DNA of 4,815 nt, taken from IMG/VR virus record IMGVR_UViG_2698536571_000003. One strand, given 5' to 3'. Below, one piece after another: positions 1 to 4,815 of this stretch. A program made the translations under genes and the position numbers. The notes below the pieces were generated by a model. It was not told where the DNA came from. It was given only the letters and a program-made list of their open reading frames with translations, and searched no databases. Source of the stretch: a virus (Duplodnaviria > Heunggongvirae > Uroviricota > Caudoviricetes). The stretch's first letter is position 1; each line of letters starts with the position of its first letter.

Positions 1-279
1 CTCCTGAATAAAGACCTTGCCACTGTCGCCAGACAAATTAACCCGTACATCAAAGTCGATATACCGGAAACAACGCGCGGCGCTCTTTACTCGTTCGTTT
101 ACAACGTGGGCGCTGGCAATTTCAGAACATCGACGCTTCTTCGCAAAATAAACCAGGGCTATATCAAAGGCGCATGTGACCAGCTATGTCGCTGGACATA
201 TGCTGGCGGTAAGCAATGGAAAGGGCTGATGACCCGTCGTGAGATTGAGCGTGAAGTCTGTTTGTGGGGGCAGCAATGA
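1..279 (+). CDS. R: Endolysin, GH24 T4/P21-type lysozyme (RrrD-like); C-terminal 92 codons only, 5' end lies outside the window
   Basis: Frame 1 is open from base 1 to TGA 277-279. Translation ...[90 protein letters not shown] matches, from memory, the C-terminus of P21 R / E. coli DLP12 RrrD-type lysozymes. Stop overlaps the Rz start (ATGA at 276-279). Confidence 0.85.
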
Positions 280-740
280 GCAGAGTCACCGCGATTATCT
301 CCGCTCTGGTTATCTGCATCATCGTCTGCCTGTCATGGGCTGTTAATCATTACCGTGATAACGCCATTACCTACAAAGAGCAGCGCGACAAAAACGCAAG
401 AGAACTGAAGCTGGCGAACGCAACCATTACTGACATGCAGCAGAGACAGCGTGATGTTAATGCACTCGATGCTAAATACACGAAGGAGTTAGCTGATGCG
501 AAAGCTGAAAATGAAACTCTGCGCGCTGATGTTGCCGCTGGTCGTCGTCGGTTGCACATCAAAGCAGTCTGTCAGTCAGTGCGTGAAGCCACCACCGCCT
601 CCGGCGTGGATAATGCAACCAGCCCCCGACTGGCAGACACCGCTGAACGGGATTATTTCACCCTCAGAGAGCGGCTGATGACGATGCAGATGCAACTGGA
701 AGGGGCACAGGAGTATATCCGCACTCAGTGCATTAAGTAG
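276..740 (+). CDS. Rz: Rz i-spanin (inner-membrane spanin subunit), 154 aa
   Basis: ATG 276 to TAG 738-740. N-terminal signal-anchor helix ([18 protein letters not shown]) followed by a charged, coiled-coil-like periplasmic domain; near-identical from memory to lambda/DLP12 Rz ([34 protein letters not shown]...). The ORF track starts at GTG 264, but ATG 276 reproduces the canonical MSRV N-terminus. Confidence 0.92.
483..488 (+). promoter_or_regulatory. Shine-Dalgarno (AAGGAG) for Rz1, located inside the Rz coding sequence
   Basis: AAGGAG lies 7 nt upstream of ATG 496. Confidence 0.7.
496..678 (+). CDS. Rz1: Rz1 o-spanin (outer-membrane lipoprotein), 60 aa, nested in the +1 frame of Rz
   Basis: ATG 496 preceded by AAGGAG (483-488) at 7-nt spacing. 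Lipobox LVVVGC with Cys20, a proline run (PPPPP) and the conserved [10 protein letters not shown] tail; matches lambda Rz1 from memory. Confidence 0.9.
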
Positions 741-782: not shown

Positions 783-1133
783 ATGCCATCACTAATCCCA
801 CGTGCCTGCCGTAAGCGTGGATGTGCAGGTACAACCACAGACAGTTCGGGTTACTGCGATAAACATCGCGGTGAAGGCTGGGTGCAGCACCAGCGCGGAC
901 TGAGCCGCCACCAGCGTGGCTATGGCTCAAAATGGACGGTGATTCGTGCCCGTATTCTGAAGCGCGATAAAGGTCTGTGTCAGTTGTGTCTGCGTGTCGG
1001 TGTGGTGAGCGAGGCGAAAACCGTCGACCACATCATCCCGAAAGCGCATGGCGGAACAGACGCAGACAGCAACCTGCAGAGTCTGTGCTGGCCCTGCCAT
1101 AAAGCGAAAACAGCGCGCGAACGAATCCGGTGA
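783..1133 (+). CDS. HNH endonuclease, phage packaging-associated (HK97 gp74-like), 116 aa
   Basis: ATG 783 with GAGGT at 774-778. Cys-rich zinc-binding N-terminus (CRKRGCAGTTTDSSGYCDKH) and an HNH core (DHIIPKAHGG...NLQSLCWPCHKAKT). Sits directly upstream of the terminase genes, the usual arrangement for this family. Confidence 0.9.
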   Translation: MPSLIPRACRKRGCAGTTTDSSGYCDKHRGEGWVQHQRGLSRHQRGYGSKWTVIRARILKRDKGLCQLCLRVGVVSEAKTVDHIIPKAHGGTDADSNLQSLCWPCHKAKTARERIR

Positions 1134-1191: not shown

Positions 1192-1365
1192 NNNNNNNNN
1201 NNNNNNNNNNNNNNNNNNNNNNNNNNNNNNNNNNNNNNNNNNNNNNNNNNNNNNNNNNNNNNNNNNNNNNNNNNNNNNNNNNNNNNNNNNNNNNNNNNNN
1301 NNNNNNNNNNNNNNNNNNNNNNNNNNNNNNNNNNNNNNNNNNNNNNNNNNNNNNNNNNNNNNNNN
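1192..1365. other. Run of 174 N (assembly gap or masked sequence)
   Basis: Unbroken n characters from 1192 to 1365. Confidence 1.
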
Positions 1366-1366
1366 G

Positions 1367-1681
1367 CAACTGACAACCAAAGAACTCTGCGGTCAGGGCC
1401 TGCTGTGCGTGACTGACCTGGCGGTACTTGAGCGGTGGTGCGTGGCCTATGAGTTCTGGCGACGTGCCGTGAAAAATATTGCCATACAGGGCAACACCAT
1501 CACCGGTGCAATGGGCGGCAGGGTCAAAAATCCGGAGCTGACCGCCAAAAAAGAACAGGAGTCCGAGATGAGCAGCACGGGGGCAATGCTCGGACTCGAC
1601 CCCAGCAGCCGCCAGCGTCTGATTGGCCTGGCGGGGCAGAAGAAAGCCACTAACCCGTTTCTGAAAATTATCGAATCATGA
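1367..1681 (+). CDS. terS: Terminase small subunit (P27/HK97 gp1-like), C-terminal 104 codons; 5' end lost in the N-run
   Basis: The frame is open from the first base after the gap to TGA 1679-1681 (...[35 protein letters not shown]...[13 protein letters not shown]). Stop overlaps the large-subunit start (ATGA at 1678-1681). Identity rests on position and coupling to the large subunit; the GTG at 1409 in the ORF track is an internal codon. Confidence 0.75.
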
Positions 1682-3411
1682 GCCGGAAATCTTACCCCAA
1701 CGTAAATGCTGCAAATCAGTATGCCCGGGATGTCGTGCGCGGAAAGATTGTTGCCTGCCAGTTTGTGATTCAGGCCTGCCAGCGCCATCTTGATGACCTG
1801 ATGGCGGAAAAAAGTAAGTCGTTTCGTTACCGCTTCGACAAGGACCTGGCTGAACGGGCCGCGAAATTTATTCAGCTGTTGCCGCACACCAAGGGGGAGT
1901 GGGCATTCAAACGGATGCCCATCACGCTGGAGCCGTGGCAGCTATTTGTGATCTGCTGTGCGTTTGGCTGGGTCAATAAAGGCACCCGGTTGCGCCGCTT
2001 CCGGGAGGTGTACACCGAAATCCCCCGTAAGAACGGCAAATCAGCAATCTCTGCCGGTGTTGCCCTGTATTGTTTTGCCTGTGATAACGAGTTTGGCGCG
2101 GAAGTGTATTCCGGTGCCACGACAGAGAAACAGGCGTGGGAAGTCTTTCGCCCGGCGCGACTGATGTGTAAACGCACACCCATGCTGACGGAAGCGTTCG
2201 GGATTGAGGTTAACGCCTCAAACATGAACCGTCCGGAGGATGGCGCGCGGTTTGAACCGCTGATCGGCAACCCAGGTGATGGTTCATCACCCCACTGTGC
2301 CGTGGTTGATGAATATCACGAGCATGCCACCGATGCGCTTTATACCACAATGCTTACCGGGATGGGGGCGCGACGTCAGCCACTGATGTGGGCCATCACC
2401 ACCGCCGGGTACAACATTGAGGGGCCGTGCTACGACAAGCGGCGGGAAGTCATCGAGATGCTCAACGGCTCGGTGCCTAACGATGAACTGTTCGGGATCA
2501 TCTATACCGTTGATGAAGGTGACGACTGGACCGGCCCGCAGGTGCTGGAAAAAGCCAATCCAAATATTGGCGTGTCGGTTTATCGCGAATTTTTGTTAAG
2601 TCAGCAGCAGCGTGCGAAAAATAACGCCCGTCTGGCAAACGTCTTTAAAACAAAACACCTCAATATCTGGGTGTCGGCGCGTTCGGCGTATTTCAACTTG
2701 GTGAGCTGGCAGAGCTGCGAGGATAAATCACTGACCCTTGAGCAGTTCGAGGGGCAGCCGTGCATTCTGGCCTTTGACCTGGCGCGTAAGCTGGATATGA
2801 ACAGCATGGCGCGACTTTATACCCGCGAGATTGACGGTAAAACGCATTACTACAGTGTGGCCCCGCGTTTCTGGGTACCGTATGACACGGTGTACAGCGT
2901 CGAGAAAAATGAAGATCGACGGACAGCCGAACGCTTTCAGAAATGGGTGGAAATGGGCGTTCTGACCGTTACCGATGGTGCGGAGGTGGATTATCGCTAC
3001 ATCCTCGAGGAGGCCAAAGCGGCGAACAAAATCAGCCCGGTCAGTGAGTCACCCATCGACCCCTTCGGGGCGACCGGGTTGTCACATGACCTTGCTGATG
3101 AAGACCTGAATCCCGTCACTATCGTCCAGAACTTCACCAATATGTCCGATCCGATGAAAGAGCTGGAAGCAGCGATTGAATCGGGACGTTTTCATCATGA
3201 CGGCAATCCCATCATGACCTGGTGTATCGGCAACGTGGTCGGCAAAAACATGCCGGGTAACGATGATGTGGTGAAACCCGTCAAAGAGCAGGCGGAAAAC
3301 AAAATCGATGGTGCAGTTGCGCTGATTATGGCGGTTGGCAGAGCCATGCTGTACGAGAAAGAAGACACGCTGTCTGACCACATTGAGTCCTACGGGATCC
3401 GCTCGCTTTAA
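1678..3411 (+). CDS. terL: Terminase large subunit (ATPase/nuclease), 577 aa
   Basis: ATG 1678 to TAA 3409-3411. Walker A-like PRKNGKS (about 2020-2045), Walker B-like CAVVDEYHE (about 2300-2325), and a C-terminal RNase H-like nuclease region with acidic residues ([21 protein letters not shown]). Confidence 0.95.
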
Positions 3412-3413
3412 CT

Positions 3414-3418
3414 GAGGT
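3414..3418 (+). promoter_or_regulatory. Shine-Dalgarno (GAGGT) for the small membrane ORF
   Basis: GAGGT lies 4 nt upstream of ATG 3423 in the 11-nt spacer after the terminase large subunit stop. Confidence 0.6.
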
Positions 3419-3422
3419 AATT

Positions 3423-3605
3423 ATGATCATGCTGATTCTCGCGCCTCTGGTGGGCGTGCTGGGTGCGCTTTTGCTGGCGTATGGTGCCTGGCTGATTTAT
3501 CCCCCGGCGGGTTTTGTTGTTGCCGGGGCGCTGTGCCTGTTCTGGTCGTGGCTGGTGGCGCGATATCTCGACCGTACACGGCAGTCTGTCGGCGGAGGTA
3601 AATAG
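3423..3605 (+). CDS. Small hypothetical membrane protein, 60 aa, two predicted transmembrane helices
   Basis: ATG 3423 with an upstream SD. Two hydrophobic helices ([26 protein letters not shown] / [16 protein letters not shown]) and a basic C-terminus; E. coli-like codon usage (CTG, GCG). Stop TAG 3603-3605 overlaps GTG 3605. No family recognised. Confidence 0.55.
3551..3558 (+). other. Chi site (5'-GCTGGTGG-3')
   Basis: Exact octamer on the + strand inside the small membrane ORF; this is the only exact occurrence I found on either strand. Confidence 0.8.
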
Positions 3606-4761
3606 TGTTCTTTTCGGGATTATTTCAACGAAAAAGCGATGTGCCGGTGACCACGCCAGCAGAACTGCTGATGCTATCGGGCTGTCATACGACACCTATA
3701 CCGGAAAGCGGATCAGTAGCCAGCGGGCCATGCGCCTGACGGCGGTCTATTCTTGCGTCAGGGTGCTGGCAGAGTCTGTTGGTATGCTGCCCTGCAGTCT
3801 CTACAAAATCAGCGGTACCCTGAAAACACGGGCGGTGGATGAACGACTGCATAAGTTGGTTTCGGCAAAACCTAATGGCTACATGACACCGCAGGAATTC
3901 TGGGAGCTGGTTATTGTCTGCCTGTGTCTACGGGGGAATTTTTACGCCTACAAGGTAAAGGCACTGGGAGAAGTGGTGGAGCTTCTTCCGATAGATCCGG
4001 GCTGTGTGGAACCGAAGCTGAACAGCCAGTGGCAGCCGGTTTATCAGGTGACGTTTCCGGATGGTTCCGTGGATGTGTTGACCCAGAATGAAATCTGGCA
4101 TGTGCGCACCCTGACGCTGGATGGACTTGTCGGGCTGAATCCCATTGCGTATGCGCGTGAGGCCATTTCACTGGCAGCGGCAACCGAGGAGCACGGTGCC
4201 AGGTTGTTTAGTAATGGTGCGGTGACATCCGGTGTGTTGCGTACGGAACAAAAGCTCACGCCGGATGCTTACGAGCGTCTGAAGAAAGATTTTGAGGAGT
4301 GTCACACGGGGCTTGGCAATGCTCACCGCCCGATGATTCTGGAAATGGGGCTGGACTGGAAGTCGATGGCGCTGAACGCCGAGGACAGTCAGTTCCTGGA
4401 AACCCGCAAGTTTCAGCTGGAAGAAATCTGTCGTCTGTTCCGGGTGCCGTTGCACATGGTGCAGAACACCGATCGCGCCACCTTCAACAATATCGAAGAG
4501 CTGGGGCTGGGATTTATCAACTATTCACTGGTGCCGTATCTGACCCGCATCGAACAGCGGATCAACACCGGACTGGTACGAAAAAGTAAGCAGGGCGTTT
4601 ATTACGCCAAATTTAACGCCGGGGCGTTACTGCGCGGGGATATGAAGTCCCGTTTTGAAGCCTACGCCACCGGGATCAACTGGGGAATTTACTCTTCCAA
4701 TGACTGCCGCGACCTGGAAGATATGAATCCGCGTCCCGGTGGTGTAATGCCGATCAGTTAA
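3605..4761 (+). CDS. Portal protein, HK97 family; 5' end uncertain because of an apparent -1 frame break between 3605 and 3736 (possible pseudogene or assembly indel; alternative start ATG 3730)
   Basis: Stop TAA 4759-4761 is firm. The portal-like frame carries motifs typical of HK97-family portals (RLTAVYSCVRVLAESVGMLP, WHVRTLTLDGLVGLNPIAYAREAISLAAATEEHGARLFSNGA, LEEICRLFRVPLHMV). That frame has no ATG/GTG/TTG with an SD between TTG 3520 and ATG 3730, whereas GTG 3605, preceded by GGAGG (3594-3598), opens a different frame that runs 44 codons to TGA 3737. Confidence 0.85.
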
Positions 4762-4815
4762 GGATCAGTTGACCGATCCAGTGGCTGTGTAAGAATCCGG
4801 AAACGCTCACTTGTT

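Follow-up and report, generated by a model that had tools for sequence, protein, structure and literature searches.

In a phiP27-like prophage of Shigella sonnei, a one-base deletion and an IS4 insertion disrupt the portal gene

Where does the portal gene of this prophage begin, and why do its best start site and its conserved domain lie in different reading frames? The window, the whole stretch of 4,815 nucleotides that was analysed (IMG/VR virus record IMGVR_UViG_2698536571_000003), is part of a phiP27-like prophage with an HK97-type head module in the Shigella sonnei chromosome. An initial annotation, made from the letters alone, proposed that a single missing base has split a portal gene initiated at GTG 3605, and it named three readings of the break: an inactivating frameshift in a decaying prophage, an indel of the draft assembly, or a portal that truly starts at ATG 3730. 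We compared the locus with intact relatives and with other assemblies of the same chromosomal region. The portal gene is almost certainly a genuine pseudogene fixed in the S. sonnei clone, part of a decaying prophage and disabled by a frameshift together with an IS4 insertion.

The Portal Gene Lies in a phiP27-like Packaging Module

The genes of the window are those of a phage late region, all on the plus strand. Upstream of the portal gene, the ORF list and domain searches give the following features in order.

First in the window, plus strand: lysozyme gene, end only.
After the lysozyme gene, plus strand: Rz gene with an embedded Rz1-like ORF.
783-1133, plus strand: HNH endonuclease gene.
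1192-1365, no strand: scaffold gap of 174 N, located 3' of the HNH gene and reaching into the P27-family small terminase gene, whose 5' part it includes.
After the N-run, plus strand: 3' part of the P27-family small terminase gene (match to TIGR01558, sm_term_P27).
1678-3411, plus strand: intact gene for the terminase large subunit (TerL; 577 aa, TerL_ATPase and TerL_nuclease domains).
3423-3605, plus strand: gene for a ymfR-like membrane protein of 60 aa, whose stop overlaps the portal start (TAGTG).

The gene order of the phiP27-like packaging module (HNH, sm_term_P27, TerL, small membrane protein, portal) is thus found in the window, and public assemblies contain the exact TerL protein in 4305 indexed blocks. 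The arrangement of the 60-aa gene and the portal gene is the same in phiP27 (L37/L38), ST64B (sb3/sb4), SfII, and E. coli, where the small gene is annotated as ymfR. A point beyond the initial annotation concerns the N-run: in complete genomes the real length behind it is 242 bases (241 in one), and a run of 174 N in the place of 242 bases is therefore a scaffold gap of estimated size.

The Portal Gene Is Divided between Two Reading Frames

The portal region and its 3' boundary comprise the features below.

3594-3598, plus strand: Shine-Dalgarno (SD) sequence GGAGG of the native portal start, 6 nt (TAAATA) before GTG 3605.
3605-3667, plus strand: portal codons 1 to 21 in the native frame, aligning with residues 1-21 of the phiP27, ST64B, SfII, and E. 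coli prophage portals.
3667/3668, plus strand: 1-nt deletion, 63 bases into the gene (CTGGCT in intact genes, CTGCT in the window).
3668-4744, plus strand: portal codons 22 to 380, which a one-base shift has put in the frame of TTG 3514 and ATG 3730.
3605-3739, plus strand: 44-codon ORF from the native start, with 21 native and 23 out-of-frame residues before TGA.
3730-4761, plus strand: 343-aa ORF, the gene callers' "portal protein", beginning at internal Met43 and ending within IS4; no SD sequence.
4733-4744, plus strand: candidate 12-bp IS4 target-site duplication, left copy (GTCCCGGTGGTG).
4745-4815, plus strand: left end of IS4 (TAATGCCGATCAG...), inside which the window ends; it contributes the codons for MPIS and a stop.

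The initial annotation described the start at GTG 3605 accurately: the GGAGG lies 6 nt before it, the GTG (3605-3607) overlaps the TAG stop of the ymfR-like ORF (3603-3605), and 44 codons follow to TGA 3737. The GGAGG is kept with the same spacing in all 80 of the best IMG/VR relatives. With SD strength taken as the predicted duplex energy with the 3' end of 16S rRNA and ranked against window positions, the sequence before GTG 3605 scores -10.8 kcal/mol, in the top 1% of window positions, versus -3.1 kcal/mol before ATG 3730, equal to the window median, and -4.4 to -5.5 kcal/mol before the TTG codons. The frame that carries the portal domain is open from TTG 3514 to TAA 4759-4761, and before 3760 its only in-frame starts are TTG 3514, 3517, and 3520 and ATG 3730; the absence of any start between TTG 3520 and ATG 3730, also described initially, was confirmed in the sequence. 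The single uninterrupted ORF with its own start that functional phages have was not found for the portal in the window.

The first 21 codons of the GTG-3605 frame match residues 1-21 of the phiP27 portal at 20 of 21 positions, and the match is continued by the other frame. When one base is restored, a 385-codon ORF results, and its product aligns with the phiP27 portal over residues 1-380 with 97% identity and no gap. The restored protein matches PF04860 (Phage_portal) with 359.2 bits (cut-off 39.1; 2.6e-107) over profile positions 2-321 of 321 and TIGR01537 (portal_HK97) with 263.6 bits (cut-off 112.05) over profile positions 3-343 of 343, and it matches the HK97 portal structure 8CEZ with E = 4.6e-51. 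Judged from these alignments, the division of one portal gene between two frames is far beyond chance.

Public annotation presents this locus differently. On at least 1000 contigs the 343-aa product bears the name "portal protein [Shigella sonnei]"; it is indexed in 1695 collection blocks, and a 414-aa version starting at TTG 3517 is AAZ89394.1 of S. sonnei Ss046. The N terminus of the TTG frame is the ymfR gene read out of frame. No exact copy of the peptide of the 44-codon ORF is called as a protein anywhere in the protein collection.

One G Is Missing Relative to Intact Homologues

A megablast search with positions 3400-4000 matched 1394 E. coli records and 20 phage records, and each of the full-length matches listed aligned 602 subject bases with 601 query bases. 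DNA alignments with seven intact homologues contain a sole gap in the window, of 1 nt, at CT-GCTGAT, where the homologues read CTGGCGGAG, CTGGCGGAT, CTGGCTGAT, or CTTGCGGAA; portal sequence is encoded in the GTG-3605 frame 5' of the gap and in the other frame 3' of it (ADAIGLSYDTYTGKRISSQRAMRL...). This single gap therefore defines the deletion as one G of a GG pair at 3667/3668. Among the indel sites proposed in the initial annotation, CTGCTG (3665-3670) includes the deleted position, and the A5 run (3631-3635) and the T4 run (3611-3614) are rejected because the homologues share the frame of the window through both.

Annotation places the start of the 413-aa portal CDS at the homologous GTG, across the stop of ymfR, both in phiP27 (CDS at 4206-5447 of L001) and in E. 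coli A36. The same layout is found in SfII and E. coli TD225, and the ST64B portal is annotated from a start one codon upstream. Among the best 80 IMG/VR relatives, 76 have one continuous portal ORF, starting at the homologous GTG in 53 and at an ATG there in 23, and 75 of these 76 ORFs encode 413 aa; the 44-codon ORF occurs in only four of the 80 loci, on contigs otherwise identical to the window (100%, from 1366 to the contig end). ATG 3730 corresponds to an internal Met, residue 43, in every intact homologue, and across eight sequences 28 of the 42 columns that precede it are invariant. The proposal that one missing base splits a portal gene starting at GTG 3605 was therefore upheld by homologues that start there and have one extra base: their N termini align with the 3605 frame and then switch frame, and N termini at ATG 3730 or TTG 3514, which the initial annotation had named as the finding that would speak against its proposal, were found in none of the 76 intact IMG/VR relatives.

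Sequence collections were also scanned for the allele itself, using a pattern of CCACGCCAGCAGAACTG, then zero or one base, then CTGATGCTATCGGGCTG. The metagenome scan gave one match, L013, in which the extra base is present (GAACTGGCTGATGCT) and a 413-aa portal gene is followed by a full-length head module. Seven matches were obtained in IMG/VR, one with the extra base (L024, again GAACTGGCTGATGCT) and six without it, and neither form of the site, with the extra base or lacking it, was found in the scan of genome contigs. Since L013 and L024 carry GAACTGGCTGATGCT, the local variant of the window exists unbroken elsewhere.

IS4 Interrupts the Portal Gene after Codon 380

Homology to intact portals stops at 4744 (...DMNPRPGG), where the gene is cut after codon 380 by IS4. 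The joined portal of about 385 aa suggested initially does correspond to a 385-codon ORF, but its C-terminal end is not portal sequence: the last four to five codons and the stop belong to IS4, and the last 33 residues of the native 413-aa protein are missing, a point that the initial annotation had overlooked. E. coli matches to the region 4745-4815 are annotated as "IS4-like element IS4 family transposase". The ORF that comes next in complete genomes encodes a 442-aa IS4 transposase with Nterm_IS4 (PF13006) and DDE_Tnp_1 (PF01609) domains, and the terminal inverted repeat of IS4 (TGTAATGCCGATCAGTTAAG / CTTAACTGACTGGCATTACA) was found flanking this ORF in L006.

Target-site duplications of IS4 are about 11-13 bp long. 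In the S. sonnei scaffold L030, GTCCCGGTGGTG recurs after the right end of IS4 and is followed by the 3' end of the portal gene and by protease, capsid, and tail genes. The presence of the same 12 bp at both ends of IS4 suggests the signature of a simple transposition with target duplication, the left junction being read in the window and the right one in L030. In L030, the portal 3' end that follows the deletion allele is also uninterrupted. This scaffold is probably a chimera, because it contains an N join, its 3' allele is found elsewhere only with intact portal starts, and its 371-aa product occurs on one contig only.

In intact relatives, Peptidase_S78 and Phage_capsid genes directly follow the portal gene; no protease or capsid gene lies next to the portal here. 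Beyond IS4, complete S. sonnei genomes contain bamE/recN, another IS inserted into IS4, or raiA-pheL-pheA, and phage head genes never followed IS4 in the complete S. sonnei genomes examined. A search with the exact protease protein displayed 16 loci (L132-L147, on 11 distinct contigs), all of them intact related prophages in other draft genomes, and the same protein is also present in two chromosome-sized records. If an IS4-mediated inversion had split the prophage, the right end of IS4 with GTCCCGGTGGTGATGTCTATCTC, followed by protease and capsid genes, would be expected; if the head genes had been deleted, it would be absent.

The Deletion Is Shared by S. sonnei Assemblies

Further loci were collected, from complete chromosomes as well as drafts, by exact-sequence look-up of the TerL protein, the 343-aa portal ORF, and the 60-aa protein of the window. 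The deletion allele is present in 20 of 20 S. sonnei loci (L003-L012 and L014-L023), at least ten complete chromosomes among them, and 17 of the 20 are base-identical to the window over 3594-4815. One of these 17 is from strain Ss046, the identity of CP000038.1 in the literature. Where the whole region was compared, ten loci from complete or chromosome-sized records are 100% identical over 1366-4815, and five IMG/VR contigs are 100% identical from 1366 to the end of the window or of the contig. Both lesions are found in every S. sonnei assembly examined, with the probable chimera L030 showing the deletion and an uninterrupted 3' end. The assemblies represent one young clone, so that their agreement shows the base to be truly absent without showing independent evolutionary events. 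Because the deletion is consistent across independent assemblies, the frameshift is best assigned to the organism and not to the draft, even though the window itself is a draft S. sonnei scaffold.

Weighing of Alternative Explanations

The draft-indel reading of the initial annotation, in which an intact gene has lost a base only through faulty sequencing or assembly, has very little probability left. The window does come from a scaffolded draft in which 174 N stand for 242 bases, and indels in homopolymers are indeed present in part of the public assemblies of the locus: one in a C5 run at 3501 (L008), and others in the terminase genes terS/terL, in A6 runs at 1547 and 1808 and a G5 run at 1893 (L017, L021, and L023). 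Yet all of these assembly-specific indels lie away from 3667, and none was found at that position in the loci compared. The site itself is a GG dinucleotide without a homopolymer run, and the same deletion recurs in every S. sonnei locus checked, whether in complete chromosomes, drafts, or IMG/VR contigs; the downstream-start ORF that derives from it is the one annotated on at least 1000 contigs. An equally poor prospect is that the true portal starts at ATG 3730, or at one of the TTG codons at 3514-3520, with the GTG-3605 ORF as noise or a small gene in its own right. It has annotation in its favour, as the 343-aa product is called in most assemblies and the 414-aa product in Ss046, and ATG 3730 stands just ahead of the stop of the 44-codon ORF, where reinitiation is conceivable. 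Against it, such a start would fall on an internal methionine behind 42 conserved residues, neither ATG 3730 nor the TTG codons have an SD sequence, the first 21 codons of the 3605 frame encode portal sequence while the TTG frame begins with out-of-frame ymfR, and the protein would still be without its C terminus and without partner head genes; the portal start at ATG 3730 offered initially was accordingly abandoned.

Expression might instead bridge the two frames, through programmed -1 ribosomal frameshifting or transcriptional slippage, which we consider the faintest prospect of all. A -1 shift fits the geometry, the frames overlap from 3605 to 3737, and the A5 run lies inside the overlap. 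However, 3605-3737 contains no X XXY YYZ heptamer in the 0 frame and no runs of four or more bases other than the T4 and A5 runs, and homology changes frame at 3667/3668, away from the A5 run. The intact relatives have single ORFs in 76 of 76 cases, the two-frame layout occurs only in contigs otherwise identical to the window, and an Rfam search of the window found no element. It is also conceivable that low-level reinitiation at ATG 3730, 5 nt upstream of TGA 3737, gives a doubly truncated fragment without residues 1-42 and 381-413. That such a fragment has been kept as a dominant-negative decoy against head assembly by superinfecting P27-, ST64B-, or SfII-like phages is highly improbable. 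The decoy idea draws solely on the overlap of ATG and TGA and on the perfect conservation of the locus, and such conservation is expected anyway because the clone is so young. An inactivating frameshift in a decaying prophage, the remaining reading of the initial annotation, is supported both by the homologues and by the S. sonnei loci.

The Lesions Are Probably Recent

Relaxed selection was assessed from substitutions private to the window portal relative to 82 intact homologues. Nine private nucleotide states were found in the portal gene, seven synonymous and two non-synonymous, and the two non-synonymous changes, R233C and P365S, affect positions invariant in 82 of 82 homologues. The private changes showed no non-synonymous excess, at 7/2 versus 61/20 in the intact controls (Fisher p = 1). 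As this ratio does not differ from that of intact genes, nothing in the portal apart from the two lesions points to long neutral decay, and both lesions probably arose late compared with the divergence of these phages.

Discussion

In the most probable history of the locus, the original gene would have started at GTG 3605, with the GGAGG as its ribosome-binding site and its translation coupled to that of the ymfR-like gene, and would have encoded a 413-aa portal of the HK97 family. Loss of a G from CTGGCT at 3667/3668 would then have led ribosomes starting at GTG 3605 to make 21 native and 23 nonsense residues before stopping at TGA 3737, leaving the portal domain in the other frame without a usable start. 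IS4 would have inserted after codon 380, duplicating GTCCCGGTGGTG and removing the last 33 residues from the product. We infer that no functional portal is made from this locus.

The nearest known system is the Stx2e phage phiP27 (NC_003356), whose L34-L38 packaging module shares its gene order with the window and whose portal, L38 (NP_543090.1), shares the start context of GGAGG, 6 nt, and a GTG over the upstream stop. Identity to phiP27 is 95% for DNA around the portal start, with 97% for the protein over residues 1-380 as given above. It falls to about 83% for DNA over terL and the portal gene, so the prophage is a mosaic relative and not phiP27 itself. The phiP27 gene is a continuous 413-aa ORF followed by protease and capsid genes, whereas the window is without one G after codon 21 and has IS4 after codon 380. 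The ymfR-portal junction and the N-terminal portal sequence are also shared with e14-type and ST64B/SfII-type prophages of E. coli, Salmonella, and Shigella flexneri. Over its first 93 residues the portal protein is 85-89% identical to theirs, and these prophages are intact at the deletion site (CTGGCGGAT or CTTGCGGAA). The restored protein matches full models of the HK97-family portals (TIGR01537/PF04860; HK97 gp3 structures 8CEZ and 8FQL), but the form encoded in the window would be a non-functional member of that family, with its domain frame lacking the native start and 33 C-terminal residues gone.

For annotation, the thousands of S. sonnei records with a "portal protein" of 343, 336, or 414 aa are gene-calling artefacts, fragments of a pseudogene, and the intactness of the region may be overrated by prophage-finding tools. 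The locus also serves as a worked example of how a lineage-fixed indel can be told from a draft error, by means of independent assemblies and of the same allele found intact elsewhere. Several phiP27-like regions had already been listed for S. sonnei on the basis of PHAST (PMC5447701). Shigella genomes are known to contain many copies of IS4 and many pseudogenes, produced by frameshifting indels and by the insertion of IS elements (Hawkey et al. 2020, PMC7373316). The same two routes of inactivation, fixed in the clone, are seen here, at a locus which that study does not discuss and in a kind of element, the prophage, whose name does not appear in its text. The finding is an ordinary one, and the portal gene is one more case of the well-documented decay of Shigella genomes driven by insertion sequences and indels.

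Gaps, indels and substitutions around the portal gene

The Rz gene (window 264-740) encloses, in the +1 frame, a 60-aa ORF (window 496-678) whose product has a signal resembling that of lipoproteins (LVVVGC) and a tail rich in proline. By these features, the ORF is predicted to be the embedded Rz1 of a classic spanin arrangement; at the locus L039, the ORF inside Rz is called with PF06085 (Rz1). In the lysozyme gene, the window carries two substitutions relative to most complete Shigella sonnei genomes (window 160 and 187), and since both are also present in the IMG/VR contig L027, they are strain-level SNPs.

The run of 174 Ns (window 1192-1365) takes the place of 242 bases that complete genomes have here, or of 241 in one genome; hidden by it are the region 3′ of the HNH gene and codons 1 to ~60 of a P27-family small terminase gene. 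In a few chromosome-sized assemblies, indels of 1-2 nt in C5, A6, or G5 runs break ymfR, terS, and terL. These indels are assembly-specific and occur only within homopolymers, and are therefore probably long-read consensus errors.

Homopolymer indel sites in the S. sonnei loci L008, L017, L021, and L023
Window 3501-3505
Window 1542-1547
Window 1803-1808
Window 1889-1893

Only the S. sonnei portal has the two non-synonymous changes R233C and P365S (window 4300 and 4696); both positions are invariant among 82 intact homologues.

IS4 insertion in the portal gene

Past codon 380 the portal is interrupted by IS4 (junction region, window 4733-4815), to which the last 71 nt of the window belong, the window ending inside the element. 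The 12 bp GTCCCGGTGGTG adjoin the left end of IS4 in the window and recur at the right IS4 junction in L030 (IMGVR_UViG_2663762996_000003), an S. sonnei scaffold with the frameshift allele, where the remaining portal and then head and tail genes follow the right junction.

IS4 and junction regions
Window 4733-4815
L030:2819-4210
L006:9066-10495

Among S. sonnei strains (L003-L009, L014-L023, and L031-L040), the sequence 3′ of the portal IS4 copy varies, which points to IS-mediated rearrangement at this site.

Sequence 3′ of the portal IS4
bamE-recN, directly 3′: L040
IS3-family element inserted into IS4, then bamE: e.g., L009
raiA-pheL-pheA-tyrA: L006, L007, L032, and L037

Positions 1-2818 of L030 run from the frameshift allele through a portal 3′ end without interruption and on into the beginning of the protease gene, followed by a single 'n' and an IS4 truncated at its left. 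The 371-aa product of L030, CST26286.1, was found on that contig only, and the scaffold is thus probably chimeric, derived from two related prophages. If the L030 junction were true, the frameshift would be older than the IS4 insertion.
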